This document shows positions 5,116 through 64,000 of a stretch of 64,000 bases of DNA, piece after piece; the stretch's first letter is position 1, and the number at the start of each line of letters is the position of its first letter. The translations under genes and the position numbers were made by a program. Origin of the DNA: Escherichia phage TH09; sequence record MT446387.1; one strand, given 5' to 3'. The notes beneath the pieces were generated by a model. It searched no databases. It had not been told where the DNA came from and saw nothing but the letters and a program-made list of their open reading frames with translations.

Positions 5116-5406
5116 ATGAAATCTTCTTTGCGCTTTTTAGGTCAAGAACTTGTAGTTGAAGGCGTTATTCCTGCTGATAATGCTTTTAATGAAGCAGTTT
5201 ACGATGAATTTATCAAAATTTTTGGAACAGATAAAAAGTTCGGAATTTTTCCTTCTGAAAATTTTTCAAAGCCAGAACAGACTGAAAGCATTTTCCAAGG
5301 TGTAGTAACAGGTAAATTTGAGTCAGAAGCTCCGGTAAAAATTGAAGTTTATATTGAAGACAGTTTAGTTGCTTCAGTTGCTGCTTTTATTTCATTCCGT
5401 AAATAA
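5116..5406 (+). CDS. hypothetical protein (96 aa)
   Basis: ORF preceded by an early-type promoter (GTTTAC, 18 nt, TATAGT) and followed by a bidirectional hairpin. Confidence 0.5.
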   Translation: MKSSLRFLGQELVVEGVIPADNAFNEAVYDEFIKIFGTDKKFGIFPSENFSKPEQTESIFQGVVTGKFESEAPVKIEVYIEDSLVASVAAFISFRK

Positions 5407-49671: not shown

Positions 49672-50495
49672 TGGCTATTTTTCAAATAATTAATGAAAGC
49701 ACTCCCCAAGTTCCAAAGGTTAAGCAATCATTAAACGAAAAGAAATGGATTCAGATAGGTCTTGAATACAAAAAGGCCAAAGCAAAAGGAATGACAGGAA
49801 AACAATTTGCTGAAGAAAGAGGAATCAAATACTCTACGTTTACTTCGGCAATGTCAAAATATGCTTCAGGAATTAAAACGGCTGAAAAGATTCAAAAGCT
49901 TGAATCAAAACCAATGAATAAACTCAATAAGCAAGAAAGACAACTGCTTATGATAAATTCATTCAGGCAAACATTGCGTGATAAAATTCGTAATGAAGGT
50001 GCAGCAATTAATAATAAAACCAGAAAGTGGTTTGCTGAAACTATTAAGCAGGTAAAAGGACATAAAGTTGTTCGCCCGCAGCCGGGACGAATATATGCTT
50101 TTGCTTATGATGCTAAACACAAGGAAACTCTTCCTTACTGGGATAAATTTCCTTTGATAATTTATCTTGGTTTAGGTAAGCATAACTTAATGTACGGATT
50201 GAACTTGCACTATATTCCACCTAAAGCTCGTCAGCAATTCCTAGAAGAGCTTCTAAAGCAATATGCAAATACACCTACTATTACTAATAAAACGAAATTA
50301 AAAATTGATTGGAGTCAAGTGAAAGGATTTAGGGGTGCAGACCAAATGATTAAGGCATATATACCTGGTAATATTATGGGTAGCCTTGTTGAAATCGCCC
50401 CGAAAGACTGGGCGAACGTTGTGTTAATGCCACTTCAGCAGTTCGTTTCAAAAGGAAAACGTTTCTCTGCAAACAAAGTCTGGTCAAATATCTAA
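49671..50495 (+). CDS. 2: DNA end protector protein gp2
   Basis: 274-aa ORF, T4 gp2 length; start overlaps the gene 4 stop. Confidence 0.9.
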
Positions 50496-50601
50496 TTCTA
50501 TTATCTTCCATTCTTTTCTGTTGTTTGTTCTAAATGGAATTGAATGGAAGGGACTTAGACCCATTATACCACCAACAGTTATAAAGCATTATGAGGAATA
50601 T

Positions 50602-51132
50602 ATGTCGCAAGCTCTGCAACAAATTTTTAACCAAGCAAATACAACTAACTTTGTAGTATCAATACCACATAGTAATACTACATCTGCTTTTACTTTAAAT
50701 GCTCAGTCAGTTCCTATTCCGGGAATTAGAATACCTGTTACTGATACCGTGACTGGGCCGTTTGGACTGGGCCGAGCACAACGTCCAGGTGTTACATTCG
50801 AGTATGATCCACTCATTGTGAGATTTATAGTTGATGAAGAACTTAAGTCGTGGATAGGAATGTATGAATGGATGCTAGGAACTAGCAACTATCTTACAGG
50901 TGAAAATACTGCTCAAAAAACAGGTCCTGAATACATTACGCTTTACATCTTAGATAATAGCAAAACTGAAATCGTGATGTCAATAAATTTTTATAAGCCT
51001 TGGGTTTCTGACCTGTCTGAAGTAGAATTTAGCTACACAGAAGATTCAGACCCAGCCTTAGTATGCACAGCAACGATTCCTTATACGTATTTTCAAGTAG
51101 AAAAAGATGGAAAAATTATAGCAGAAGTTTAA
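50602..51132 (+). CDS. 3: tail tube terminator gp3
   Basis: Track ORF starts at an upstream alternative codon; ATG giving MSQALQQIFNQANTTNFVVS (176 aa) matches recalled T4 gp3. Confidence 0.85.
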   Translation: MSQALQQIFNQANTTNFVVSIPHSNTTSAFTLNAQSVPIPGIRIPVTDTVTGPFGLGRAQRPGVTFEYDPLIVRFIVDEELKSWIGMYEWMLGTSNYLTGENTAQKTGPEYITLYILDNSKTEIVMSINFYKPWVSDLSEVEFSYTEDSDPALVCTATIPYTYFQVEKDGKIIAEV

Positions 51133-51156
51133 TGCTTCAGTTTCATGTGTTATAAT
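51133..51156 (+). promoter_or_regulatory. middle promoter: MotA box TGCTTCA plus -10 TATAAT (gene 1)
   Basis: TGCTTCA at 51133..51139 and TATAAT at 51151..51156, spacing 11 nt. Confidence 0.65.
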
Positions 51157-51181
51157 CTTAACTAAATTTGAGGAGAAACAT

Positions 51182-51894
51182 ATGAAACTAATCTTTTTAA
51201 GTGGTGTAAAGCGTAGTGGAAAAGATACTACTGCTGATTTTATCATGAGCAATTATTCTGCAGTTAAATATCAACTTGCTGGTCCTATTAAGGATGCATT
51301 GGCTTATGCATGGGGTGTATTTGCAGCAAACACTGACTATCCTTGTTTAACTCGTAAAGAGTTTGAAGGAATTGACTATGATCGTGAAACTAATTTAAAT
51401 CTGACTAAATTAGAAGTAATTACGATTATGGAACAAGCATTTTGCTATCTTAATAGTAAAAGCCCAATTAAAGGTGTGTTTGTTTTTGATGACGCAGTTA
51501 ATTTCGTAGCATTTAACAAGATTGCTGACGTTATAAATAATATTGAAGATCAATGGTCAGTCCGTCGTCTGATGCAAGCCCTAGGTACGGATTTGATTGT
51601 TAATAACTTCGACCGCATGTATTGGGTAAAATTATTTGCTTTAGATTATCTTGATAAATTTAACTCAGGTTATGATTATTATATCGTTCCTGATACTCGT
51701 CAAGATCATGAAATGGATGCGGCTAGGGCGATGGGTGCTACAGTAATTCATGTAGTTCGTCCTGGTCAAAAATCCAATGATACTCATATTACAGAAGCTG
51801 GATTGCCAATTCGTGATGGCGATTTAGTAATTACAAACGATGGTTCTCTTGAAGAACTTTTTTCTAAAATTAAAAATACACTAAAGGTACTATA

Positions 51895-51895
<1 letters not shown>
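51182..51895 (+). CDS. 1: deoxynucleoside monophosphate kinase gp1
   Basis: 237-aa ORF with P-loop (GVKRSGKDT); MotA-box middle promoter upstream. Confidence 0.9.
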
Positions 51896-52592
<697 letters not shown>

Positions 52593-52604
52593 TTTCACAA
52601 AGTT

Positions 52605-52641
52605 GTTTACACGCTGATGAGGTAGTGATACTATTATCTCA
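52605..52641 (+). promoter_or_regulatory. early promoter with stem-loop enclosing the -10 (PeSL-like cassette)
   Basis: GTTTAC, 17 nt, gtgATACTAtt; inverted repeat gatgag/ctcatc spans the -10. Confidence 0.65.
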
Positions 52642-52664
52642 TCAAAATTAATTAGGAAAATAAA

Positions 52665-52922
52665 ATGAAAACTTTCAAAGAGTTTGCTACAAAAACTACT
52701 ATCACCGAATCTTCCCACGGTATGGAAGTAAAGCTTGGAATGGCTTTAGCTGAAGCTGAGCGTCTTTTCTCTCGTATTAAAGAACTTGCTGCTGCAGTCG
52801 ATCCTTCATCTTTTAAAGGAGACCAAACTAAAGTTAAAGCGCTTTTAGCATTATGCTCAGATGCAGGAGAAATTGCTAAAAATGGTTCTAAGATGAAGAA
52901 ACGATTAGAAGATTTAAAATAA
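52665..52922 (+). CDS. internal-protein-like protein with CTS-like N-terminus (85 aa)
   Basis: N-terminus MKTFKEFATKTTITE resembles the T4 capsid targeting sequence (MKTYQEFIAE); preceded by an early promoter/stem-loop cassette. Confidence 0.6.
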   Translation: MKTFKEFATKTTITESSHGMEVKLGMALAEAERLFSRIKELAAAVDPSSFKGDQTKVKALLALCSDAGEIAKNGSKMKKRLEDLK

Positions 52923-52934
52923 TTTCACAAAGTT

Positions 52935-52966
52935 GTTTACACAGGGTTTTAGTAGTGATACTATTA
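52935..52966 (+). promoter_or_regulatory. early promoter (PeSL-like), near-identical copy of the cassette at 52605
   Basis: The sequence aatttcacaaagttgtttacac ... agtgatactatta is repeated. Confidence 0.65.
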
Positions 52967-52998
52967 CTCTATCAAAACAAAACCAAATGGAAATCAAA

Positions 52999-53232
52999 AT
53001 GAAAACTTTCAAAGAGTTTATCGCTGAATCTTCTGATGTAAAAGTTGAGTTTATTTACACCGGCAAGAAAGATAAAATGGGTGAAATGCCTCATGGAGTT
53101 CTTCGTGATGCATTAGATAATTTCGGTCAACTCGCCGCAGAAGATTACGGTGATAAAATTGTTGTTACTGGTCCTGCTGCAGTTATTGAAAAATGGGCAG
53201 CAGAAAATAAATCAATTTTTCGTAAAAAATAA
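52999..53232 (+). CDS. internal-protein-like protein with CTS-like N-terminus (77 aa)
   Basis: Track ORF starts at a TTG inside the promoter; ATG at 52999 gives MKTFKEFIAESS..., same arrangement as the upstream gene. Confidence 0.55.
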   Translation: MKTFKEFIAESSDVKVEFIYTGKKDKMGEMPHGVLRDALDNFGQLAAEDYGDKIVVTGPAAVIEKWAAENKSIFRKK

Positions 53233-53271
53233 GTTTACTTTTAGATAGGGTAGTGATACTATTACCCTATC
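53233..53271 (+). promoter_or_regulatory. early promoter with stem-loop (gataggg / ccctatc) enclosing the -10
   Basis: GTTTAC, 17 nt, gtgATACTAtt inside an inverted repeat. Confidence 0.6.
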
Positions 53272-53290
53272 AACTACCGAGGAGAATAAA

Positions 53291-53476
53291 ATGAAACGTT
53301 GTGAATTAATTCGAAATGTTGCTATTGCAATTTCTGCTTCTGCTTTTAGTTTTTCAATGTTTGTTGGATTTATATGCGGATTATTGACTACAGCAGAAAA
53401 TGTGTTTTCGCTTGTAGTAGCATTTTTAATTGGTTTAATCGCTATCGTTATGGATAAAATTTCTAAAGGTGAATAG
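53291..53476 (+). CDS. small membrane protein (61 aa, two predicted TM helices)
   Basis: Hydrophobic ORF with its own early-type promoter/stem-loop upstream. Confidence 0.5.
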   Translation: MKRCELIRNVAIAISASAFSFSMFVGFICGLLTTAENVFSLVVAFLIGLIAIVMDKISKGE

Positions 53477-53477
53477 A

Positions 53478-53858
53478 ATGTATAAAGTGTACGCGGATTA
53501 TCAGGCTAATCCATCTGAAAAGCCAGATTGCCAAATTGGATGGGCTCATGATACCCTGCTTGAAGCAGTAGATGCTGCTCAAAAATTAGGATATAGTTAT
53601 GTAGATATTGTTCAACCTGGCGGAACAGTTATTACTCTTGAAGAGTTTAATAATATTAAACCAAACTTTTTACTTTTTGCAGGTGATAATTATTATCCTC
53701 GCGGTGGATATGCTGATTTAATCGCTAAAGCCGCTACCGAAGATGAACTCCGTGACATTATCAAAGAAAATGAAAACAAACCAATGTATGGTTTTAATCG
53801 CTTTGATTGGTGGCAAATTGTAAATGCCCACACTCATACTATTGTTGATGAAGGGTAA
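53478..53858 (+). CDS. hypothetical protein (126 aa)
   Basis: Track ORF starts at a GTG; ATG at 53478 with AAGG upstream immediately follows the upstream stop. Confidence 0.5.
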   Translation: MYKVYADYQANPSEKPDCQIGWAHDTLLEAVDAAQKLGYSYVDIVQPGGTVITLEEFNNIKPNFLLFAGDNYYPRGGYADLIAKAATEDELRDIIKENENKPMYGFNRFDWWQIVNAHTHTIVDEG

Positions 53859-53861
53859 ATA

Positions 53862-54155
53862 ATGATTCTTTATGCTAAAGTATCATCCATTGAAAATGGA
53901 TATAAATATGATCAAGACGCGGCTAAAGCCTTGATTGATGATTATGGCGTTTTAACATGTTTTGAAGTTGAAAAGGTTTATATTGACCGTTCATCTTCTC
54001 AAGTTAAATTATTGAAGGAAGACTGTAAATTTAATACAGTAAATTTTGATTTCTTTATTGAAACAGAAAAAGGTCCTCTTGAATATGATATTTTCAAGAA
54101 TCCTTTGGGTCTTGAATGTATTGAATATACTTACATTAATATGGTGAGTAAATGA
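53862..54155 (+). CDS. hypothetical protein (97 aa)
   Basis: ORF with AAGGG ribosome-binding site; tightly packed. Confidence 0.5.
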   Translation: MILYAKVSSIENGYKYDQDAAKALIDDYGVLTCFEVEKVYIDRSSSQVKLLKEDCKFNTVNFDFFIETEKGPLEYDIFKNPLGLECIEYTYINMVSK

Positions 54156-54667
54156 ATATTTGTTTAGGTACTACAATTCCACAGGGTTACGTAATTGATG
54201 TCACTACCTGGGAAAATGATGGTGACAACTATAAAACTAAAACACTGTTTGGCGTAGAAGAGCATGAAATCTTACAATTCCAATATCTTTTAAAGAAGTT
54301 TAAAAGCAGACATTCTAGTACTAAAGCTGAACGTTATTGTGGTAATGGCTTGTTCAGCGAGCAATCGCTTTTTATTTATGAATACTTGGTTGAAGGACTG
54401 TTCTCAGAACAACTTTATCCAGAATTCATTAAAAAGGTCTTTGATATAGAAGTTGACCTTGGTAATAAATCCGAAGAAGACGAAGAACGTGTATTTGACT
54501 TATTCTTTGTGAATGGTAATAAAGTGCTTGAAGGACTTATTAATATTTTAGGCAGTGCTTCTGAGTATTATGATTATGATTTTTTGCGTGTAGTTGAGAG
54601 TGTTAAATACTCTTATATAGAAGAAGAAATTGTTTTGCCGACCGTTAAAATGTTTAATTTGCTTTAA
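54152..54667 (+). CDS. hypothetical protein (171 aa)
   Basis: ORF whose start overlaps the upstream stop (ATGA). Confidence 0.5.
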   Translation: MNICLGTTIPQGYVIDVTTWENDGDNYKTKTLFGVEEHEILQFQYLLKKFKSRHSSTKAERYCGNGLFSEQSLFIYEYLVEGLFSEQLYPEFIKKVFDIEVDLGNKSEEDEERVFDLFFVNGNKVLEGLINILGSASEYYDYDFLRVVESVKYSYIEEEIVLPTVKMFNLL

Positions 54668-54753
54668 GAATTATTTGTTATTATTAACTCATGCCGCACT
54701 GATTAATACCCTCTATCATCAAGGGTTCTTATTTGAGAGCCTTTGTTAATAAT

Positions 54754-54826
54754 TGGGAATTAGCCAAGTTGGTAAGGCACTGGATTTTGATTCCAGGATG
54801 CAAAGGTTCGAGTCCTTTATTCCCAG
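54754..54826 (+). tRNA. tRNA-Gln (anticodon TTG)
   Basis: Hand-folded cloverleaf: acceptor tgggaat/attccca, anticodon loop ttTTGat, T-loop ttcgagt. Confidence 0.85.
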
Positions 54827-54827
54827 C

Positions 54828-54914
54828 GCGAGAATGGTCAAATTGGTAAAGGCACAGCACTTAAAATGCTGCGGAATGATTTCCTTGTGGGTTCGAGTCC
54901 CACTTCTCGCACCA
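54828..54914 (+). tRNA. tRNA-Leu (anticodon TAA), type II, CCA encoded
   Basis: Acceptor gcgagaa/ttctcgc, anticodon loop ctTAAaa, long variable arm, T-loop ttcgagt. Confidence 0.85.
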
Positions 54915-54919
54915 AATTT

Positions 54920-54993
<74 letters not shown>

Positions 54994-55003
54994 ATTTAAT
55001 TTA

Positions 55004-55077
55004 CTCCGTGTAGCTCAGTTTGGTAGAGCGCCTGATTTGGGATCAGGAGGTCCAAGGTTCAAATCCTTGTATGGAGA
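55004..55077 (+). tRNA. tRNA-Pro (anticodon TGG)
   Basis: Acceptor ctccgtg/tatggag (two G-U pairs), anticodon loop ttTGGga, T-loop ttcaaat. Confidence 0.8.
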
Positions 55078-55079
55078 CT

Positions 55080-55169
55080 GGAGGCGTGGCAGAGTGGTTT
55101 AATGCACCGGTCTTGAAAACCGGCAGTCGCTCCGGCGACTCATAGGTTCAAATCCTATCGCCTCCGCCA
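55080..55169 (+). tRNA. tRNA-Ser (anticodon TGA), type II, CCA encoded
   Basis: Acceptor ggaggcg/cgcctcc, anticodon loop ctTGAaa, long variable arm, T-loop ttcaaat. Confidence 0.85.
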
Positions 55170-55174
55170 GTTTT

Positions 55175-55250
55175 GCTGATTTAGCTCAGTAGGTAGAGCA
55201 ACTCACTTGTAATGAGAAGGTCGGCGGTTCGATTCCGTCAATCAGCACCA
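55175..55250 (+). tRNA. tRNA-Thr (anticodon TGT), CCA encoded
   Basis: Acceptor gctgatt/aatcagc, anticodon loop ctTGTaa, T-loop ttcgatt. Confidence 0.85.
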
Positions 55251-55251
55251 A

Positions 55252-55326
55252 GGCCCTGTAGCTGGAAGGTTCAAGCAAGCGACTCATAATCGCCAGATGG
55301 TGGTTCAATTCCACCCAGGGCCACCA
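55252..55326 (+). tRNA. tRNA with anticodon CAT, probably the AUA-reading tRNA-Ile of T-even phages (could be Met)
   Basis: Acceptor ggccctg/cagggcc, anticodon loop ctCATaa, T-loop ttcaatt. Confidence 0.75.
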
Positions 55327-55339
55327 AATTAAGAATTAA

Positions 55340-55426
55340 GGGGAGTTATCCCGTAGAGGTAGCGGTGTGGACTGTAAATCCATTGTCATTGCGACTCGGG
55401 TGGTTCGACTCCATCACTCCCCACCA
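55340..55426 (+). tRNA. tRNA-Tyr (anticodon GTA), type II, CCA encoded
   Basis: Acceptor ggggagt/actcccc, anticodon loop ctGTAaa, long variable arm; the D-arm fold is slightly atypical. Confidence 0.7.
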
Positions 55427-55430
55427 ATTT

Positions 55431-55505
55431 GGATGTGTAGCTCAATGGCAGAGCGATCGCCTGTTAAGCGATTGGTTATAGGTTCGAATCCTATCACGTC
55501 CGCCA
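55431..55505 (+). tRNA. tRNA-Asn (anticodon GTT), CCA encoded
   Basis: Acceptor ggatgtg/cacgtcc, anticodon stem atcgc/gcgat with loop ctGTTaa, T-loop ttcgaat. Confidence 0.8.
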
Positions 55506-55509
55506 AATA

Positions 55510-55585
55510 CGAGGCATAGCTCAGAAGGAAGAGCAAGGACCTTCTAAGTCCTGGGTCGTAGGTTCGATCCCTACTGCCTCGACCA
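55510..55585 (+). tRNA. tRNA-Arg (anticodon TCT), CCA encoded
   Basis: Acceptor cgaggca/tgcctcg, anticodon stem aggac/gtcct with loop ctTCTaa, T-loop ttcgatc. Confidence 0.85.
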
Positions 55586-55589
55586 AACA

Positions 55590-55930
55590 AGAAGCCGGGT
55601 CGCTACCGGTAAGTCGTCGGACTGATGTTCCCTGGGTAAGGACTGGCATTAACAAATCTTTACGATCGGTTAATGCCCCCTTACATCACAGCAGAAACGG
55701 CGCACCGAATTATCGATTCGAGGAAATATCTTTGCCGTAAGCCGAGTAGCGTTTTTGACGGAACGTTCGGATATGGTTGAGATATGGCCTTTTAAAATAT
55801 TAAGTAGCGTCAACTGCTTAATAACCGGGTTCGAATCCCGGCGTTTCGTACAAACACTTGCCTTAGCAGGTGGAACCCCGACAAGGTTGCCGCAAGGCTT
55901 AGCCCCGACCGAAAGGTTGGGGCTTTTTGG
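55590..55930 (+). ncRNA. structured non-coding RNA region directly after the tRNA cluster (one or two small stable RNAs; boundaries uncertain)
   Basis: About 340 nt without a plausible ORF, GC-richer than its surroundings; 8-bp hairpin gcattaac/gttaatgc near 55646..55677; tRNA-like T-arm ccggg-ttcgaat-cccgg at 55825..55841; ends in a GAAA-tetraloop terminator. The position corresponds to the small stable RNAs of T4. Confidence 0.5.
55902..55930 (+). terminator. hairpin (GAAA loop) plus T-run ending the small-RNA region
   Basis: gccccgacc-gaaa-ggttggggc followed by ttttt. Confidence 0.7.
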
Positions 55931-55938
55931 TATAAATA
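55931..55938 (+). promoter_or_regulatory. late promoter TATAAATA
   Basis: Exact motif 41 nt upstream of the ORF at 55979, right after the terminator. Confidence 0.6.
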
Positions 55939-55978
55939 TAGTAGTATATTAAAACCACGAATTAAAACAGGAAATAAG

Positions 55979-56452
55979 ATGAAATCATATGCTCAATTTT
56001 TAAATGAAGCGGTGTTAAATGAAGCATCTAGCACCGAAATTCAAGCTGTCGCAAAAGCTGCCATTGCCGCGGGTAAATATTCCTATAAAGATGCTTCCGA
56101 TGAATCACGATTCCAATTTGCTCGTGATATGAAAGCCGAAGGATTTACAGGGAATGCAGTTAGTATGGCTTGGAAAAGTTTAGTTGCTACTGGAGCTGCT
56201 TTTGCAAAGGCTTCAGGTAAACCTGCTCCTAAAGCAGATCCTAAAGTCGCACAAGAGAAAAATATTGTTAAAGGAATTATCTCCAAATATGAAGCTATCC
56301 TTAAAGAGCTTTTAGTAATTAAAACTGAAGGCCAAAAGCTAGCTCGTGCTTATAGTTTCAAAGATAACCCACATGTTCACTCTCTTGAATATGTTGAAGA
56401 CATCCAAAAAATTATTAAAGACCGCATTTGGTCTGCTAAACAAATCAAATAA
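55979..56452 (+). CDS. internal-protein-like protein with CTS-like N-terminus (157 aa)
   Basis: N-terminus MKSYAQFLNEAVLNE; TATAAATA 41 nt upstream; hairpin terminator downstream. Confidence 0.6.
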   Translation: MKSYAQFLNEAVLNEASSTEIQAVAKAAIAAGKYSYKDASDESRFQFARDMKAEGFTGNAVSMAWKSLVATGAAFAKASGKPAPKADPKVAQEKNIVKGIISKYEAILKELLVIKTEGQKLARAYSFKDNPHVHSLEYVEDIQKIIKDRIWSAKQIK

Positions 56453-56460
56453 CATTCTTA

Positions 56461-56489
56461 GCCCTAGCCGAAAGGTTGGGGCTTTTTAG
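56461..56489 (+). terminator. hairpin (GAAA loop) plus T-run, near copy of the 55902 terminator
   Basis: gccctagcc-gaaa-ggttggggc followed by ttttt. Confidence 0.65.
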
Positions 56490-56570
56490 TTTGAATCGCT
56501 CGGAGAATGCTGTTACATATAACAACGTGATAAATAATTAATAACCAATAAATTATTTCAAGGATTTTAA

Positions 56571-57134
56571 ATGAAAACCTACGCCGAATTTTTAACCGAA
56601 GCAGCAAAATTACCATCTGAAGCAGATCTTACTAAAGTATTCTTCCACTTGGACCCAAAAGACCGTGGCGATTTTCTTAAGTGGAAAGCTAAAGCTATTG
56701 AAATGTACAACATCGATAATAGTTCTTTTACAATGAGTCAAGAAAATAAATTCAATAAAGCATTTTTCAAAATTTCTAAGAAATTGGCATCTGGCGCTCA
56801 GGTTCCTAAATCTGCATTAGCTACTCCTGAACGCGCACCTGTTAAAATTTCTAAGAATATGTTCGACACTAAAAAATACGTTAATGCTTTGAATAAAGCT
56901 CTTGATGCATTGGATGATGCAAAGAAGGCAGCCCGTGATCTTCAAGACGTGTACACCGATTTTGATCGTAAAACTAAAGGTTCTATTTCAAATAGCGAAC
57001 GCAATAGTGTAAGTGTTTATTCTGATAGCCTTGACGTTCTTGGCGATGCGTATACTGAAATTAAAAATCGTATTAACACTGCATCTAAGCTAAAAGCTGC
57101 CGCAGAAGCTATAATAACTAAACTAGATAAATAA
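56571..57134 (+). CDS. internal-protein-like protein with CTS-like N-terminus (187 aa)
   Basis: N-terminus MKTYAEFLTEAAK; hairpin terminator downstream. Confidence 0.6.
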   Translation: MKTYAEFLTEAAKLPSEADLTKVFFHLDPKDRGDFLKWKAKAIEMYNIDNSSFTMSQENKFNKAFFKISKKLASGAQVPKSALATPERAPVKISKNMFDTKKYVNALNKALDALDDAKKAARDLQDVYTDFDRKTKGSISNSERNSVSVYSDSLDVLGDAYTEIKNRINTASKLKAAAEAIITKLDK

Positions 57135-57142
57135 TTTTAAAT

Positions 57143-57168
57143 CCCTATCTAAATGATAGGGCTTTTTG
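57143..57168 (+). terminator. hairpin plus T-run
   Basis: ccctatc-taaat-gataggg followed by ctttttgg. Confidence 0.65.
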
Positions 57169-57300
57169 GCATCTAGGCCTTTCTGGATCTCTCTAGGCAT
57201 CATTTAGTTTCTACCCTTTATAATATATTATCCTATCCTTTAATTGCCCCTTCCATCCCTAGAATTCCCTAAAACTTTTTAAAAAATTTTTCACAAAACT

Positions 57301-57330
57301 GTTTACATCCCTGTTCTTCCATGGTACTAT
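57301..57330 (+). promoter_or_regulatory. early-type promoter (GTTTAC, about 18 nt, TACTAT)
   Basis: Motif match upstream of the ORF at 57374. Confidence 0.5.
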
Positions 57331-57373
57331 ACAACTATCAACTACTGATACAGAAAACAACTTGGAGAATGAA

Positions 57374-57637
57374 ATGGATAATTACGGCGAACTGTTCAAC
57401 TTCTTTATGAAATGCGTTTCAGAAGATTTCGGTCGTACAGTGAATGATATTAAAGTTATCGGTCCTGATCATCCGATGTTTGAAACTTACGCAGTAATGG
57501 GTAATGAAGACGGTCAGTGGTATACTGTAAAGGTTGTGATTAACATGTTCACAGCAGAAGGTTATGTTAAACTGTCTTCTAAAGTTTACCATGATAACGA
57601 CGAAATCGCAGAAGAATATTTCAATAATATGAAATAA
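57374..57637 (+). CDS. hypothetical protein (87 aa)
   Basis: Track ORF starts at a TTG; ATG at 57374 with GGAGA 5 nt upstream; early-type promoter at 57301. Confidence 0.5.
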   Translation: MDNYGELFNFFMKCVSEDFGRTVNDIKVIGPDHPMFETYAVMGNEDGQWYTVKVVINMFTAEGYVKLSSKVYHDNDEIAEEYFNNMK

Positions 57638-57674
57638 GTTTACACAGGCTCATGATTGAGATATTATGAGCCTG
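57638..57674 (+). promoter_or_regulatory. early-type promoter with 9-bp stem-loop (caggctcat / atgagcctg) enclosing the -10
   Basis: GTTTAC at 57638; inverted repeat 57645..57653 / 57666..57674. Confidence 0.5.
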
Positions 57675-57692
57675 TAACTTGAGGAGAACATT

Positions 57693-58031
57693 ATGAAACG
57701 TAACTTTAGTAAAGCTTTTTGTAATCGAAATTATTATCCCGAAGAGCTTTTTGAATCTAAGGACTTTAAAGAGTTTAATGAACGTTCTCAAAACATGCCT
57801 GTACAATGGGTGTTAGATTATGCCAATCGTATCTTTGAAGGTGTGCGGGATATTTGTCCTGATGATGAAGCTCCTTATTTTAAAAAGGCTTGGGAGCTCG
57901 CCAATCAAGCATATATCAATGCTTCAGAATCTTATAAAGGTACTGACGACGATTTTATTTTACTGGCTATTAACGATGCTATTATAGAGGCCATCGATGA
58001 CTTTATTACGCTGAATTCAGATGAAGAATAA
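57693..58031 (+). CDS. hypothetical acidic protein (112 aa)
   Basis: ORF with GAGGAG ribosome-binding site. Confidence 0.5.
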   Translation: MKRNFSKAFCNRNYYPEELFESKDFKEFNERSQNMPVQWVLDYANRIFEGVRDICPDDEAPYFKKAWELANQAYINASESYKGTDDDFILLAINDAIIEAIDDFITLNSDEE

Positions 58032-58093
58032 GTATACAATCTATCTATTAGAAACGTGATATTATCTAATTATACCGACATGAGGAAACTGTT

Positions 58094-58624
58094 ATGTCTC
58101 TTTATACTGAACTGAATGAAACTTCCGAAAGATCTTTTGATGGTATTTTATCAATAATGCAAAAGCAGGTATTAGAACAGCTTAGTGAAGCCGCAAGCAA
58201 CGGACATAAGGCTTGTCGAATCCCAAGCCCACATCGTCGCCTGTATGAACGCCCTCTTATTAATTGGCTAGAAAGCGAAGGTCTTACGGTTAAGATTTGT
58301 CCTGCCAAATTTGATGTTCCACGTATTCTTAATATTTACTGGGATAAACCGATTGAGAAACCGATTGAGAAAAGTGACCCTTGGGTTGTTAATGTAAAAA
58401 CATGTGATAATGGATGCTCACTTGAGGTGTCTGCTGTAATTAAAGGCACTCACGGTGAAAAATCGTGGGGTTGGCCTGGTAAAAATAAAGAAATCGTGTT
58501 AAGTGTAAAAGCTACTAGTATTAGTACTCCTATAGCTAAAAGCATTATTAATGCTGCTATCGATGAAGCTGAACGAATTTGTAAAATTAAAAATAGTTTA
58601 CATCTCTCAAATAATGGGATATAA
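58094..58624 (+). CDS. hypothetical protein (176 aa) with internal KPIEKPIEK repeat
   Basis: ORF with GAGGAA ribosome-binding site; 12-bp tandem duplication at 58347..58370. Confidence 0.5.
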   Translation: MSLYTELNETSERSFDGILSIMQKQVLEQLSEAASNGHKACRIPSPHRRLYERPLINWLESEGLTVKICPAKFDVPRILNIYWDKPIEKPIEKSDPWVVNVKTCDNGCSLEVSAVIKGTHGEKSWGWPGKNKEIVLSVKATSISTPIAKSIINAAIDEAERICKIKNSLHLSNNGI

Positions 58625-58667
58625 TTCTTCCACAGATTTTAAATCTTAATCAACCTAAGGAAATACT

Positions 58668-59261
58668 ATGAACACACTGAAGAAAATTGTTGAGTTTATT
58701 CGCACTAAACTTGGTTCTGCTATGGCTAAAAATTTATCTGTTGAAGAACAGTATACTGCTGCAGCAGCAAAACTACTTGATAAAATTAAAGATCTAAAAA
58801 CTGCTTCTATTAAATCTATTAATGAAGAAAAACGTATTCGTGAACTTGTTATCGAAAAGAATCGACAAGCCGAATCAAAAGAGCGTGAAATTCGTAAACT
58901 TCTTTCCGAAGGTCAAGATGTAACAATGCATGCTAAACTCGGTTTACTATATCGCCGAACAGCTGAGCAGTTGACTACTAAAGCTGACGGTTATGCTGAA
59001 ATGCGAATTGAAATCGCCAAGAAAGTAGTTGAGTTAGATGATGCCCGTCAAGAACTTGCAGTTAAATTGGAATATATCCGTGAAACTCGTGCGGCAAATG
59101 CCCTTGGAATTAGTACTGCCGATGATGTAGTTGAAATTGCAGCACTGACTAAGGTTGATATTGAAGATACCCTTGCTCGAGTTGAAACCTTTAATGGTAA
59201 TATTTCTGGGGTTGAAACTACCTCTGCCGATGTTCAGGAATACATTAATTCTCTGAAATAA
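58668..59261 (+). CDS. coiled-coil protein with PspA/IM30-like character (197 aa), tentative
   Basis: Strongly helical, charged heptad-like sequence; segments resemble PspA-family proteins as recalled (for example ...[11 protein letters not shown]...). Not verified by search. Confidence 0.45.
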
Positions 59262-59275
59262 TGATAAGGGGCTTC

Positions 59276-59291
59276 GGCCCCTATTACTTGG
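59276..59291 (+). terminator. stable UUCG hairpin without a clear U-tract (possible RNA-stability or processing element)
   Basis: aggggcTTCGgcccct between the ORFs at 58668 and 59303. Confidence 0.4.
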
Positions 59292-59302
59292 AGTAAATAG
59301 GA

Positions 59303-59908
59303 ATGAAAATGCAAAGTGATTTCAATTCAATGTTTGAAGAGTTCCAAAGACAAGTTGATGTTCCAGACCAATTACTAAATGCTCTTAAACGCATGGCAGA
59401 AGGACGTAATTACTATTGGAGCTCTTCATATGAAACTGATGAAAGTCTTTCTGGATTTTATAAAGGTAAAAAGTCTTTAATACGTCCTGGAATACTCATT
59501 AAAAGTATTGAATCAATTCATTCATTGACGTGTGATTTTGATGTTGAATTTACTGATTTCATTTCTCCTGAATGGACAGTTTGTTATTTAAACGACGATT
59601 ATGATTATCTTGGCGTTTATAGTTTAAGTGACGCATGGTTTAAACGTAATTTACAAAAGTCAAATTTGTTCTATATTGATACTACGGTAAAATTTCAGGG
59701 AAAGAAATATTTCTTTACTCTTATAGTTGACTCTGAAACAAAATATGAAAATAAGCGTATTCTTAGTAAAAAGAATATCTTAACTATCGTTGATGATCTT
59801 TTTGATAAATTCGTGGAAAATCCTAATTTTGAAAGCGATTTATTATTAGAAAAATTTGTTAAGGAATGTAGAGAATATGTCAAAGCCATCACTATACCTT
59901 CCAAGTAA
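59303..59908 (+). CDS. hypothetical protein (201 aa) sharing a C-terminal tail motif with the downstream membrane proteins
   Basis: ORF; C-terminus ...EKFVKECREYVK; its 3' end carries the ribosome-binding site of the next gene. Confidence 0.5.
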   Translation: MKMQSDFNSMFEEFQRQVDVPDQLLNALKRMAEGRNYYWSSSYETDESLSGFYKGKKSLIRPGILIKSIESIHSLTCDFDVEFTDFISPEWTVCYLNDDYDYLGVYSLSDAWFKRNLQKSNLFYIDTTVKFQGKKYFFTLIVDSETKYENKRILSKKNILTIVDDLFDKFVENPNFESDLLLEKFVKECREYVKAITIPSK

Positions 59909-60269
59909 ACCTGTGAAGTATGAACTAAAGCGTCAGCTAATTCCTACTGATGTATTAATAGGTCCTGTGACAGCTATATCATTTGTAATTCTATTGATTG
60001 TTGGAATGGTTATAGACTTTATGACTGATATTGAATCTGGCGTAATATTTTTGTTAGTATTAATTCTTCCATTAGTAGTTCCATTTTTATTGGTACCTGT
60101 AAATTGGGTAGGATATTGGTATCAAGGAAGGCATTATCGTAAACGTGTACGTGAATGGAAAGCTCAGTGTAAAAAGATTAAAAAGGAACACCAGCTTAAA
60201 CTAAATATGTATGAATTTAATGAAATTATGAAATTTGTTAAGGAATCACGATGCAAAAGCCAAAACTAA
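59877..60269 (+). CDS. small membrane protein, paralog A (about 130 aa, two predicted TM helices)
   Basis: Track ORF starts at a TTG; ATG at 59877 gives MSKPSLYLPSKP...; hydrophobic core then basic tail ending FVKESRCK. Confidence 0.55.
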   Translation: MSKPSLYLPSKPVKYELKRQLIPTDVLIGPVTAISFVILLIVGMVIDFMTDIESGVIFLLVLILPLVVPFLLVPVNWVGYWYQGRHYRKRVREWKAQCKKIKKEHQLKLNMYEFNEIMKFVKESRCKSQN

Positions 60270-60625
60270 ATAAAGTCAAATATTCTTTTTCTGAGTCATT
60301 TTTAATTTTTGCTGTGGCGTTGGCTGCAGCTCTTGCTGGTAGTCTTATTGGATTAATGATTGACTGTATTATTTTAAACATCCGCAGTAACGTCAGCGGT
60401 ATAGTAGATATAATAGAAGTTTGGAGTGAACTTCATTATACTATAGCGATTTCATTATTTTCATTCTTTGGTATTATTTTATATTTTCATTATGATAATT
60501 TTAAAATAAATTGGCAAAGAAAAAAGGATTACAAAATACAATTAAAAGAATATAATAACTACATGTCTTATATTGAAAATGAATCAATGAAAGAATTCGT
60601 GAATGATTGTAGGAAAATCAAATGA
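60251..60625 (+). CDS. small membrane protein, paralog B (124 aa, two predicted TM helices)
   Basis: ATG preceded by TAAGGAA; hydrophobic core then basic tail ending FVNDCRKIK. Confidence 0.55.
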   Translation: MQKPKLNKVKYSFSESFLIFAVALAAALAGSLIGLMIDCIILNIRSNVSGIVDIIEVWSELHYTIAISLFSFFGIILYFHYDNFKINWQRKKDYKIQLKEYNNYMSYIENESMKEFVNDCRKIK

Positions 60626-61091
60626 TTTTAAAAACTCGCTGGTATGATTTAGATGATGGGGACGATGGCATTTCAGTCGATAGAGTTGACTGGAGCGGCT
60701 GTTCTGAAGATACAAAGAAACGATTAATTAGGGAGTTTAGAATGGGATATCAAGCAGTTAAGCCATCTACTGTAACAGATGATAAATTCGTGTGTATTCA
60801 AAATGGTCGTGCTAAGTTAACGAACGCTGATTGGTTCACAGATAAGAAGGTTATTCTGTGGTATATTATTAGTTTTCCTGTGACATCATTTGTATTTTGC
60901 TTCTTTGGAGAAAGTCCAGTAGGCAGAACGGAAGATTGGATTCTTTTAATTATACTTGTTAATATTTTTACAGCAGCAGTACTATCAGGAATATGGTGCG
61001 TGTTCATTGAAATGCCATGGCGGTTACGTAGGCAGCAAAAGATTTTTGATGAAAAGAAATATACTCAAAATTTAAATAATTTTATCACTGA

Positions 61092-61110
<19 letters not shown>
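60622..61110 (+). CDS. small membrane protein, paralog C (162 aa; soluble N-domain plus two predicted TM helices)
   Basis: ATG overlaps the upstream stop (ATGA); tail ending FITECRKLK. Confidence 0.55.
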
Positions 61111-62079
<969 letters not shown>

Positions 62080-62083
62080 AGTT

Positions 62084-62120
62084 GTTTACTTTCTCCTAGA
62101 ATTGTGATAGTATATTCACA
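62084..62120 (+). promoter_or_regulatory. early-type promoter with stem-loop (tgtga / tcaca) enclosing the -10 (denV)
   Basis: GTTTAC at 62084; -10 region gatagtatatt inside an inverted repeat. Confidence 0.55.
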
Positions 62121-62138
62121 GTTAATTGGAGGGATAAA

Positions 62139-62555
62139 ATGACTCGTATTAATTTGACTTTAGTATCTGAACTTGCTGATCAACATTTAATCGCAGAATA
62201 CCGTGAATTGCCGCGTGTTTTTGGTATAGTTCGTAAGCATGTGGCAAACGGTAAGCGCGTTAAAGATTTTAAAATATCTTCCGAGTTTATTTTAGGTTCT
62301 GGTCATGTTACGTTCTTTTACGATAAGTTAGAATTTTTGCGAAAGCGTCAATTAGACATTATAACGGAATGCTTAAAACGCGGGTTCAGTATAAAAGATA
62401 CTGAAGTTCCTGACATCAGCGATATTCCAGTAGAATGGAAAAATGATTATAATCCATGCAAATCAGCTATTAAATTGAGTCAACAACGACTTGATGAAAA
62501 AATTTTAATGAAACCACATTGGTATAAGTATTACGGTAAAAATATTTACATTTAA
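62139..62555 (+). CDS. denV: endonuclease V (pyrimidine dimer DNA glycosylase)
   Basis: 138-aa ORF matching recalled T4 endo V ([17 protein letters not shown]...). Confidence 0.9.
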
Positions 62556-62564
62556 AGGAAACAT

Positions 62565-63038
62565 ATGAAAACATATCAAGAATTTATCACTGAAGCAGCT
62601 ATTAATTCTCAAATTATTGCTGAATCTTTTACTGATCTTTTGAAATTTAAAAAAGGTCAAAAAATCACTGCTGTATTGGATGATGGTACAGAAGTTGAGA
62701 TGGATGTACAGGGATATAATTATGCAGTAGATGGAAAATTGTATAATAAATCTCATGCTAAATTTGATTCATTTGACGACTTTGTTAATACAGTTGAAGA
62801 TGAAAAAACTCGTCGATCCATTGCAACTGGTGATGCTAAGGTTCTTATGGCACATGGTCATGAACGCATTCGCGCTAAACAGAATAAAATGGGCGAAGAT
62901 AATTTCGCATTAGTTGGTTATCAATCTGGTAAACAAACTTATGGTTATCAACGTACTGCTACCATGTATAATAAAAATGGTAAAATTGCCTTTGTGAATA
63001 GTAAAGGTTCTATTCAGTACGTTAAATCGTTCAAATAA
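62565..63038 (+). CDS. internal-protein-like protein with CTS-like N-terminus (157 aa)
   Basis: N-terminus MKTYQEFITEAAINS is almost the canonical T4 capsid targeting sequence. Confidence 0.6.
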   Translation: MKTYQEFITEAAINSQIIAESFTDLLKFKKGQKITAVLDDGTEVEMDVQGYNYAVDGKLYNKSHAKFDSFDDFVNTVEDEKTRRSIATGDAKVLMAHGHERIRAKQNKMGEDNFALVGYQSGKQTYGYQRTATMYNKNGKIAFVNSKGSIQYVKSFK

Positions 63039-63179
63039 TATGGGAACAAGCTGGACCTCATGATTCTGTGAGGGATTCCCGCCAACCTGTGATAAGGTCG
63101 AGCCTGAGTGCGGTAATGGGTAAATACAGAAATGGACAATTCATGCGCCACGGAATGGCCCAAATTTAGAGAGAATAAA

Positions 63180-63722
63180 ATGAGAACATTTTTAACTGGT
63201 CCTTATCTATCCCTGATGAATGCTTTTATACACCATTCTGATGCTAGAGTAGAAGAAATTTGTAATAGTGGATTTTATGTACCTGATTCGTCGCATTTAT
63301 TTAAAGAATATTGTACACTTCGACTAGATGGTGGACGTCAATCCGGTAAATCAATTGCTGTGACTAACTTTGCTGCTAATTGGCTGTATGATGGCGGAAC
63401 AGTTATTGTTCTTTCTAATACTTCAGCTTACGCTAAAATTTCTGCAAATAACATTAAAAAGGAATTTTCGCGTTATTCTAATGATGATATACGTTTTCGT
63501 TTATTTACTGATTCTGTGCGCAGTTTTATTGGTAATAAAGGAAGTAAGTTCAGAGGTTTATCGCTTTCGCGAATTTTGTATATAATTGATGAGCCTGTCA
63601 AATCTCCTGATATGGATAAGATTTATAGCGTCCATATTGACACTGTACACTACTGCTGTAATAGTAAATGTTGCATTGGTGGTATTACTCGTCCACAGTT
63701 TTTCGTAATCGGAATGCAATGA
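63180..63722 (+). CDS. hypothetical P-loop protein (180 aa)
   Basis: Track ORF starts at 63132; the ATG at 63180 has a GAGAG ribosome-binding site; Walker A-like GGRQSGKS and Walker B-like ILYIIDEP. Confidence 0.5.
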   Translation: MRTFLTGPYLSLMNAFIHHSDARVEEICNSGFYVPDSSHLFKEYCTLRLDGGRQSGKSIAVTNFAANWLYDGGTVIVLSNTSAYAKISANNIKKEFSRYSNDDIRFRLFTDSVRSFIGNKGSKFRGLSLSRILYIIDEPVKSPDMDKIYSVHIDTVHYCCNSKCCIGGITRPQFFVIGMQ

Positions 63723-64000
63723 TGACAGACACACAGCTTTTCGAATATCTCTATTTTTCGCCAAAAACTATTAAAAATAAATTGGTAAATCATTTTGAAA
63801 TTTTGGCAAATAATAACATTTTAAGCGAATTTTATCCCAAGCAATACAAATTACAAAAAGGCGTATTCAAAGGATGCAGAGTTTTGTGCACTGCTCCTAA
63901 TGCACGGCTAATGAATAAAATTCCATATTTTACCATGGAATTTATTGATGGGCCTTTTAAAGGACTAATCACCCAAAGTTTAATGGCATATGATTCTGAG
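63722..64000 (+). CDS. hypothetical protein, 5' part only (runs off the window end)
   Basis: ATG overlapping the upstream stop (TGATG); open to base 64000 (MTDTQLFEYLYFSPK...). Confidence 0.4.
   Translation, partial: MTDTQLFEYLYFSPKTIKNKLVNHFEILANNNILSEFYPKQYKLQKGVFKGCRVLCTAPNARLMNKIPYFTMEFIDGPFKGLITQSLMAYDSE

Follow-up and report, generated by a model that had tools for sequence, protein, structure and literature searches.

Early-promoter stem-loop elements at the gene junctions of the IP locus in Escherichia phage TH09 and their probable part in cassette exchange

The IP locus in the 64 kb of Escherichia phage TH09 DNA analysed here (the window) carries a repeated early-promoter element at its gene junctions, and these repeats are very probably the IP-locus junction elements of the T-even phages, a locus-specific version of promoter-early stem-loops (PeSLs) built on the T4 early promoter. 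Such elements had been proposed in an earlier, sequence-only reading of this DNA; the observation is confirmed, the interpretation is supported and the phenomenon is already known (Repoila 1994; Arbiol 2010; Comeau 2014). By sequence similarity the window is from a Tequatrovirus, and over the 2 kb around the repeats it shares 99.8% identity with Escherichia phage JLBYU31 (Tequatrovirus gizh); this 2-kb stretch matched 772 phage records, among which T4-like coliphages predominated.

The IP locus and its promoter elements

By the annotations of JLBYU31, T4 and PST, the + strand of the window is the direction of early transcription and carries the gene order 1-57A-57B-ip5-ip6-tRNA.4-tRNA.3-tRNA.2-tRNA array. 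The IP locus is bounded by 57B on the left and tRNA.4 on the right and contains ip5 and ip6 in the window. Gene 57B (52137–52592, +; phrog_755), the conserved left anchor of the locus, ends with the codons GAT TTA AAA TAA, which form part of a repeat held in common with the end of ip5. The ip5 gene (52665–52922, +; ipV in the PST annotation) encodes an internal head protein of 85 amino acids (phrog_3499, E 1e-49) with the capsid-targeting leader MKTFKEFATK and a C-terminal EDLK-stop that copies the DDLK-stop of 57B; ip6 (52999–53232, +; ipVI in the PST annotation) encodes an internal virion protein of 77 amino acids (phrog_8111, E 3e-51) with the leader MKTFKEFIAE and has an extra in-frame ATG at 52987. 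The conserved right anchor, tRNA.4 (53291–53476, +; phrog_1692), is a gene for a small membrane protein. The flanked ORFs carry the capsid-targeting leader of internal virion proteins, MKT(F/Y)xEF, and from these leaders and the PHROG matches to internal head and virion proteins it follows that the ‘CTS genes’ of the sequence-only reading are the ip5 and ip6 cassettes of the T-even IP locus. The claim that the repeats flank CTS genes thus holds here but not further downstream, where the genes flanked are e.8/e.7 (at 57638) and e/denV (at 62084).

A repeat search recovered three copies, at 52577–52647, 52907–52977 (83% identity to copy 1) and 53205–53275 (62%), with a spacing of 330 bp from copy 1 to copy 2. 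These correspond to the three early-promoter copies that had been placed at 52605, 52935 and 53233, which are also borne out by a count of the pattern GTTTAC-N18-TAnnAT: seven matches in 64 kb against 0.36 expected, an excess of about 20-fold, with seven reached in none of 100 shuffles. All seven (52605, 52935, 53233, 57301, 57638, 58596 and 62084) read along the + strand and lie either in a spacer or at the 3' end of an ORF, and they occur only between 52.6 and 62.1 kb, the early region; the pattern is absent from the first 52 kb, which holds the baseplate and tail genes. The late promoter TATAAATA was not found in the IP locus, its nearest + strand occurrences being at 51532 and 53901.

Copies 1–3 read TTTAC(A/T)-N17-TACTAT, a sigma-70-type -35/-10 pair at 17-nt spacing, and the -10 hexamers elsewhere are TATTAT (57638), TATAAT (58596) and TAGTAT (62084, one position off TAYWAT). 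Among the junction elements the extended -10 GTGATACTAT is invariant, and the three IP-locus copies have in common, at this extended -10, the exact 15-mer core GTAGTGATACTATTA. This core has no other match in the window at up to two mismatches, and across the window and 24–26 kb each of JLBYU31 and PST it is confined to IP-locus junctions. The composite element spans about 90–120 nt and has a constant order: an upstream stop codon within an A/T-rich tract (TTTAAAATAATTTCACAAAGTT before copies 1 and 2, TTTTTCGTAAAAAATAA before copy 3), the -35 GTTTAC(A/T), the 17-nt spacer with its 3' part as the left arm of an inverted repeat, the -10, the right arm, and then a leader with a Shine–Dalgarno (SD) sequence, joined before ip genes by the ATG and conserved capsid-targeting codons. 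The SD and downstream start codon close the 3' ends of the elements (AGGAAAATAAAATG, GGAAATCAAAATG and GAGGAGAATAAAATG).

Element 1, at the 57B/ip5 junction (52577–52664, +), has its -35 TTTACA at 52606–52611 and the hexamer of its extended -10 at 52629–52634, between a left arm TGATGAGGTA (52615–52624) and a right arm TATCTCATCA (52635–52644) that is followed by leader and SD. Element 2, between ip5 and ip6 (52907–52998, +), has its -35 at 52936–52941 and its -10 hexamer at 52959–52964, and its inverted repeat is degraded and in a shifted register (ACAGGGT, 52941–52947; ACTCTAT, 52966–52972). In element 3, between ip6 and tRNA.4 (53205–53290, +), the -35 TTTACT (53234–53239) and the -10 hexamer (53257–53262) precede the SD GAGGAG, and the arms GATAGGGTA (53244–53252) and TACCCTATC (53263–53271) bracket the -10. 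Two of the copies had been read as near-identical over about 45 bp; the likeness of copies 1 and 2 in fact consists of three exact patches: one of 32 nt (52581–52612 and 52911–52942), in which 57B and ip5, the genes upstream, have their last four codons; the 15-nt core; and one of 24 nt made up of the SD, the ATG and the first CTS codons.

The four remaining matches lie outside the IP locus. The e.8/e.7 element (57638–57692, +) starts with GTTTAC at 57638, and its arms ACAGGCTCAT (57644–57653) and ATGAGCCTGT (57666–57675) enclose the -10 TATTAT (57662–57667). The element after the lysozyme gene e (62084–62138, +) is weaker, with the -10 TAGTAT at 62108–62113 and arms AATTGTGA (62100–62107) and TCACAGTT (62116–62123) that pair at seven of eight positions. 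The other two are early promoters in which RNA folding found no hairpin: that of e.8 (57301–57330, +), which in its 3' part resembles the leader of element 3, of the type termed c below, and TTTACA-N17-TATAAT at 58596–58625 (+), at the right edge of a variable block.

For comparison, the interval from 57B to tRNA.4 was examined in T4, PST, JLBYU31, RB15, T2, RB5, RB33, Lutter, teqdroes, 310Ecol104PP, slur02, phage 132 and ESh17, and another 33 IMG/VR loci were retrieved via the 57B protein. Across 18 Tequatrovirus loci (the window and 17 related ones) the number, order and identity of the ip genes differ among related phages, giving 13 layouts of 0 to 4 genes each from a pool of ip5, ip6, ipI, ip7, ip8 and ip9. 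These are: no ip gene (slur02, with one element); ip5, ipI (T4), ip7 or ip6 on its own; the pairs ip5-ip6 (window, PST, JLBYU31), ip5-ipI, ip5-ip7 (T2), ipI-ip6 and ip9-ip7; and the longer arrays ip5-ip9-ip7, ip9-ip7-ip8 and ip5-ip9-ip7-ip8 (RB15). A GTTTAC-N18-TAnnAT element is present at each gene junction of all 18 loci.

Stem pairing and the possible role of the hairpin

Folding of the repeats as RNA gave predicted structures for all three copies, of -14.8 kcal/mol for copy 1 (z -4.1), -11.6 kcal/mol for copy 2 (z -3.2) and -16.4 kcal/mol for copy 3 (z -4.5). An inverted repeat enclosing the -10 had been described for each; this is so for copies 1 and 3, whereas copy 2 folds in its shifted and degraded register (ACAGGGT...ACTCTAT), with one mismatch and one G.T pair. 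The similar architecture noted at 57638 and 62084 is strong at the former (-20.0 kcal/mol, z -5.9) and weak at the latter (-8.8 kcal/mol, z -1.8). Rfam 15 at gathering score returned only tRNAs for positions 50000–64000.

Conservation of pairing was assessed by aligning, without gaps, 69 distinct elements drawn from 50 sources. In the register of copies 1 and 3, 69.1% of cells pair, compared with 63.4 ± 0.9 in shuffles (none of 500 as high) and with 31–61% when the partners are slid; cells with changes on both sides numbered 70 versus 42, as in the arms GATGAGGTA/TACCTCATC compared with GATAGGGTA/TACCCTATC. Pairing in the copy-2 register was 51.1% versus 46.4% across the alignment. To judge from this alignment, stem pairing is selected or repeatedly restored, though not at all junctions: those between ip9 and ip7 have poor stems, with folds of -2 to -7 kcal/mol. 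Since copy 2 and several chimeric junctions have poor stems, the hairpin is not obligatory. A sequence-specific operator was rejected, as the arm sequences vary.

Two signs of action as sense-strand RNA were considered and set aside. Among outer-arm pairs G.T (20) did not significantly exceed A.C (11; p = 0.15), and an apparent advantage of the sense strand in 43 of 46 elements stems from the invariant promoter core and was gone once the -10 core was masked. As a separate observation on the arms, GATGGGGTA and ATGGGGT, which are G-rich left arms, pair via G.U with either type of right arm.

From its consensus the element would serve the downstream gene as a sigma-70 early promoter, with a predicted +1 about 7 nt past the -10. 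The right arm would then span roughly -6 to +4 and hold the +1, from which it follows that the complete hairpin would form only in read-through RNA or single-stranded DNA. One function that such a hairpin could have is that of an efficient transcription terminator insulating each cassette, as for an RB49 PeSL stem-loop that lowered lacZ expression as much as rrnB T1, and both the position of the hairpins immediately 3' of the upstream stop codon and the stability of the RNA stems (-12 to -20 kcal/mol) speak for it. However, a U-tract is missing after all five hairpins (3' flanks AAAATTAATT, AAAACAAAAC, AACTACCGAG, AACTTGAGGA and AATTGGAGGG), so that they are not canonical intrinsic terminators, and a terminator scan listed none of the five while reporting terminator-like sites nearby at 55901, 56460 and 57143; on both counts the intrinsic (Rho-independent) terminator class was rejected. 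Some junctions are, moreover, almost free of stems, and the T-even stems have been described as weaker and more AT-rich (Arbiol 2010). Termination as the primary function of the hairpins therefore appears doubtful.

The likeliest role of the hairpin, placed as it is right after the upstream stop codon, would be that of an attenuator or a 3'-end protector in read-through RNA. REP-like intercistronic stabiliser hairpins likewise place a stable stem directly after a stop codon without a U-tract, a likeness that fits a protecting or processing role in read-through RNA; they differ in that the stem in the window overlaps a promoter.

Mosaic junctions and break points in related phages

The junction elements of the 17 related Tequatrovirus loci and of the window were tabulated, and across these 18 loci the 5' half of an element tracks the gene upstream of it and the 3' half the gene downstream. 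The 5' halves are of three types, A after 57B, B after ip5, ipI or ip8, and C after ip6, ip7 or ip9; the 3' halves are of type a before ip5, ipI and ip7, b before ip6 and ip8, c before tRNA.4 and ip9, and d in teqdroes and RB15. At the invariant core these halves meet in ten combinations (A+a, A+c, B+a, B+b, B+c, B+d, C+a, C+b, C+c and C+d). On the aligned sequences, such mosaic halves are the footprint expected from crossovers inside the element. Individual loci carry similar traces: in one IMG/VR locus (L032) an element of the copy-2 type lies directly 3' of 57B and is followed by ip6, so that this locus equals the window minus ‘element 1 + ip5’, the product expected of a crossover between copies 1 and 2; element 3 of PST is chimeric, with the right arm of element 1; and a second locus (L012) has a 19-nt tandem duplication within an element.

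Homology blocks between the window and 12 related Tequatrovirus loci of different IP content ended, in all 24 cases, within the junction units 52577–52699, 52907–53034 and 53223–53296, and in these 12 loci no block ended inside the bodies of ip5 or ip6. Together with the ten half combinations, this supports the modular exchange of cassettes via PeSLs that the sequence-only reading had suggested. It should be noted of homology blocks in general that they necessarily take in whatever sequence is shared, wherever the crossover actually took place.

A wider survey compared 52–64 kb of the window with T4, JLBYU31, PST, T2 and RB33 and yielded about 35 distinct break points. The seven promoter elements account for 5.8% of this sequence, so that about two break points would be expected in them under a whole-sequence null; ten fall there, and another two are no more than 37 nt from an element. 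The ten include 57637, 57689, 58591, 58620, 58651 and 62128–62138. For PST and T2, homology stops at 57637, at the 57638 element; it resumes around the 58596 promoter, at 58591 (PST, T2), 58620 (JLBYU31) and 58651 (T4), and homology with T4, PST, T2 and RB33 ends at 62128–62138, in the 62084 element. Repeats lying away from the synteny break points of relatives had been named as the finding that would speak against exchange; as the block ends and break points fall at the elements, this is not the situation here. The enrichment of break points is significant under the whole-sequence null, but there is no clear excess against an intergenic-only null, and the enrichment is not decisive because the elements fill most spacers: a whole-gene replacement, if viable, would appear to break at elements because these occupy nearly all of the spacer. 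The reassortment of halves is therefore more direct evidence than break-point enrichment.

A passive origin of these boundaries would leave recombination unfocused on the elements: these would be strong early promoters kept alike by functional constraint, together with an old tandem duplication of ip genes, and breaks would be kept between genes by selection. Three points would fit: the break-point enrichment (10 of about 35 versus 2) was gauged against the whole sequence alone; the upstream tract recurs in part (TTTCACAAA..TGTTTACA) at 57301, an unrelated promoter; and other indels in the same 12 kb have non-promoter boundaries, namely terminator repeats, SD overlaps and the tRNA/segB region. 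Against it, copies 1 and 2 have an identical stretch of 32 nt that takes in four codons of two unrelated genes, and their upstream tracts are only 19–50% identical to the other early promoters of the window. The restriction of the exact 15-mer core to the IP locus argues that the core is no general promoter requirement, and the ten combinations of 5' and 3' halves at this core, like chimeras such as element 3 of PST, also speak against passive boundaries. We regard a passive origin as unlikely.

In the preferred reading, that of junction elements which take part in exchange, the footprint of cassette exchange is visible in the compared sequences and the process itself is what we infer from it. 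The exact patches of 32, 15 and 24 nt between copies 1 and 2 would provide portable homology for the homologous recombination machinery of the phage, and unequal crossing-over within a genome, together with exchange between co-infecting phages, would add, delete and swap whole ip cassettes, each arriving with an intact promoter and ribosome-binding site. Exchange between copies 1 and 2 is predicted to release ip5 as a mini-circle of 330 bp.

The inverted repeat might have a more active part, in that its arms would be kept mutually compatible across reassorting modules and/or exchange would be focused on the 12–15-nt -10 core, but we think this quite unlikely. A focus on the -10 core would imply a process that depends on structure or on transcription, in place of plain homology. 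If the inverted repeat were active in this way, the element would be an active, self-repairing recombination site beyond a shared promoter.

A targeted DNA site, at which the dyad would form an extruded cruciform or hairpin and exchange would be initiated through cleavage by a structure-specific nuclease such as endonuclease VII or through binding of a dedicated protein, is very improbable: the covariation backs pairing and is compatible with either strand or molecule, and the apparent crossovers cluster at the dyad centre, but the arm sequences differ between element types and so offer no fixed recognition sequence, folded as DNA the hairpins reach no more than -3.0 to -10.2 kcal/mol (for copy 2 and 62084, z is only -1.0 to -1.1), arms of 7–10 bp with loops of 4–18 nt are poor candidates for cruciform extrusion, and the locus has no annotated recombinase gene. 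The idea had been raised for the RB49 PeSLs (Arbiol 2010).

Relation to known elements

The interpretation of the repeats is right but not new, because it is the published PeSL/IP-locus model; the finding is a correct rediscovery, and its biology was already covered by Repoila 1994, Arbiol 2010 and Comeau 2014. PeSLs were defined and named in RB49/phi1 by Arbiol 2010, with promoter activity, terminator activity and mini-circles demonstrated in RB49/phi1 only; the same paper describes the T-even IP elements as analogues, not homologues, of the RB49 PeSLs and, in a passage on the earlier work, credits Repoila 1994 with PeSL-like sequences at the two variable IP loci.

The ip5-ip6 layout of the window is common to PST and T6. 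The abstract that Repoila published in 1994 reportedly describes a flanking sequence of about 70 bp, in which an inverted repeat overlaps a T4 early promoter, as a proposed mediator of shuffling. Between the IP-locus elements of Repoila 1994 and those of the window there is no essential difference: the locus (57B to tRNA.4), the gene families and the element are the same, and in the window an early promoter with an overlapping inverted repeat is found on both sides of each ip gene. Repoila's RB15 record (Z35082; ip5-ip9-ip7-ip8) aligns at 92% to window positions 52584–53034 and contains GTAGTGATACTATTA three times.

Comeau 2014 credits the 1994 IP-locus observation and extends PeSLs to PST and T4 with the consensus TTTACW-N17-TAYWAT, which is matched by copies 1–3, 57638 and 58596. 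That paper describes A-Gn...Cn-T stems (ATAGGGTA/TACCCTAT) in hyperplastic regions beside indels, as in the window, where the elements likewise lie in hyperplastic regions next to insertions, deletions and replacements between close relatives. A stem-loop within or next to the promoter is present in copies 1–3 and lacking from the plain promoters 57301 and 58596. By the legend of Fig. 3 in Comeau 2014 the PST stem-loops are just upstream of the promoter, whereas the stems in the window enclose the -10.

The PeSLs of RB49/phi1 follow the same order as the window elements (stop codon, AT-rich tract, -35, -10, stem-loop, SD and ATG), stems overlapping the -10 are among their commonest classes, they flank variable small ORFs and exchange leaves chimeric elements, all as in the window. 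They differ in having near-perfect TTGACA/TATAAT promoters and Gn-loop-Cn stems, in contrast to the -35 TTTACA/T and the mixed A/T and G/C stems of the window, and RB49-type sequence, meaning homology with the founding PeSLs, was not found in the window elements. Arbiol 2010 also drew an analogy to integron cassettes and to Botstein's modular ‘linker’ sequences, where small promoter-associated cassettes are swapped at conserved boundaries; integrons differ from the IP locus, at which no integrase or attC-type site is annotated and general homologous recombination is thought to be used.

To the published model the present analysis adds a table of module combinations and crossover zones, along with negative results on the strand of action and on canonical terminator function, and the modules arranged around an invariant core yield concrete crossover predictions for experimental tests. 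Internal proteins are injected with the DNA, and Ip1, Ip2 and Ip3 of T4 each block a different GmrSD-type restriction enzyme; the cassette array is therefore an anti-defence toolkit that can be reshuffled quickly and has a part in shaping host range. In genome scans the elements are of value for annotation, as they mark the IP locus and predict exchangeable small ORFs.

In more distant genera the plan of the locus is kept: leader-bearing ORFs number 0 to 3, and the promoter elements have stems that differ in sequence (such as AGGTCTATA/TATAGACCT, GGGCTAT/ATAGCCC and GGGTTAT/ATAACCC).

Promoter elements at variable loci

Variability among the phages compared extends to a second internal protein (IP) locus, which lies 3' of lysozyme gene e (window 62139-62555). 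The window and JLBYU31 carry denV followed by ip4 at this position; T4 has ipIII-ipII-denV, PST has ipIII-ipIV, and in T2 and RB33 ip4 stands alone. On the left, homology breaks at the 62084 element, a weaker example of the early promoter with an inverted repeat enclosing its -10, and on the right at the Shine-Dalgarno (SD) sequence of the ip4 gene (62539-62550).

At the first IP locus, between 57B and tRNA.4, the last four codons including the stop (GAT TTA AAA TAA) are identical in 57B (52581-52592) and ip5 (52911-52922), the protein C-termini being ...DDLK* and ...EDLK* respectively; the repeat therefore takes in coding sequence at both places, and the two proteins concerned are unrelated. 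At the right end of this locus, a stretch of ~70 nt (53250-53322) that takes in the -10, right arm and leader as well as the opening codons of tRNA.4 has ~93% identity to many Klebsiella and Raoultella phages, and the same phages gave no further match to the 1.08-kb query by megablast. A separate observation concerns L012, an IMG/VR locus from the set found with the 57B protein, in which one junction element (5174-5235) contains a 19-nt tandem duplication (GATACTATTACCTCATCAA, present twice) spanning the -10 and right arm; this looks like slippage or unequal exchange within the element.

An ORF encoding 176 amino acids (58094-58624, phrog_6869) is missing in T4 and JLBYU31. It is flanked on one side by a degenerate version of the early promoter that T4 has at e.7|e.6 (58032-58075; GTATAC, with an over-long spacer) and on the other by the intact promoter at 58596, which has no hairpin. 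The arrangement looks like a cassette between two promoter copies, one decayed and one live.

Terminator repeats bounding a phrog_2280 array

The ORFs 55979-56452 and 56571-57134 are paralogues that carry a leader and belong to phrog_2280, and each is followed by a terminator-like hairpin (56457-56496 and 57137-57176 respectively); a further such hairpin (55898-55937) lies 3' of the tRNA region, and all three consist of AGCCCCGACCGAAAGGTTGGGGCTTTTT and its variants. A late-promoter motif, TATAAATA, is present at 55931. Both ORFs are missing in T4, PST and T2 (break points 55933/57143), and the second is missing in JLBYU31 and RB33 (break points 56487-56490/57151). The boundaries of this cassette array are terminator repeats rather than promoters, and represent a second type of repeated boundary.

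The tRNA region and an ORF between SD/stop-start stretches

ARAGORN predicts a 94-nt tRNA-Lys at 55758-55851, a sequence that scores below threshold for the Rfam tRNA model and is homologous to the T4 stretch carrying the small stable RNAs rnaD and rnaC. An ORF of 171 amino acids (54152-54667) separates tRNA.2 from the tRNA array; the window shares it with JLBYU31, T2 and RB33, it is missing in T4 and PST (break points 54133/54648), and neither of its edges carries a promoter element.

PST, T2 and RB33 lack the ORF at 60622-61110 (162 amino acids). The edges of this ORF fall at a pair of similar stretches of SD sequence and overlapping stop-start codons, AGGAAAATCAAATGA and AGGAAATTAAAATGA (60596-60625 and 61081-61110), which constitute a third type of short-homology boundary.
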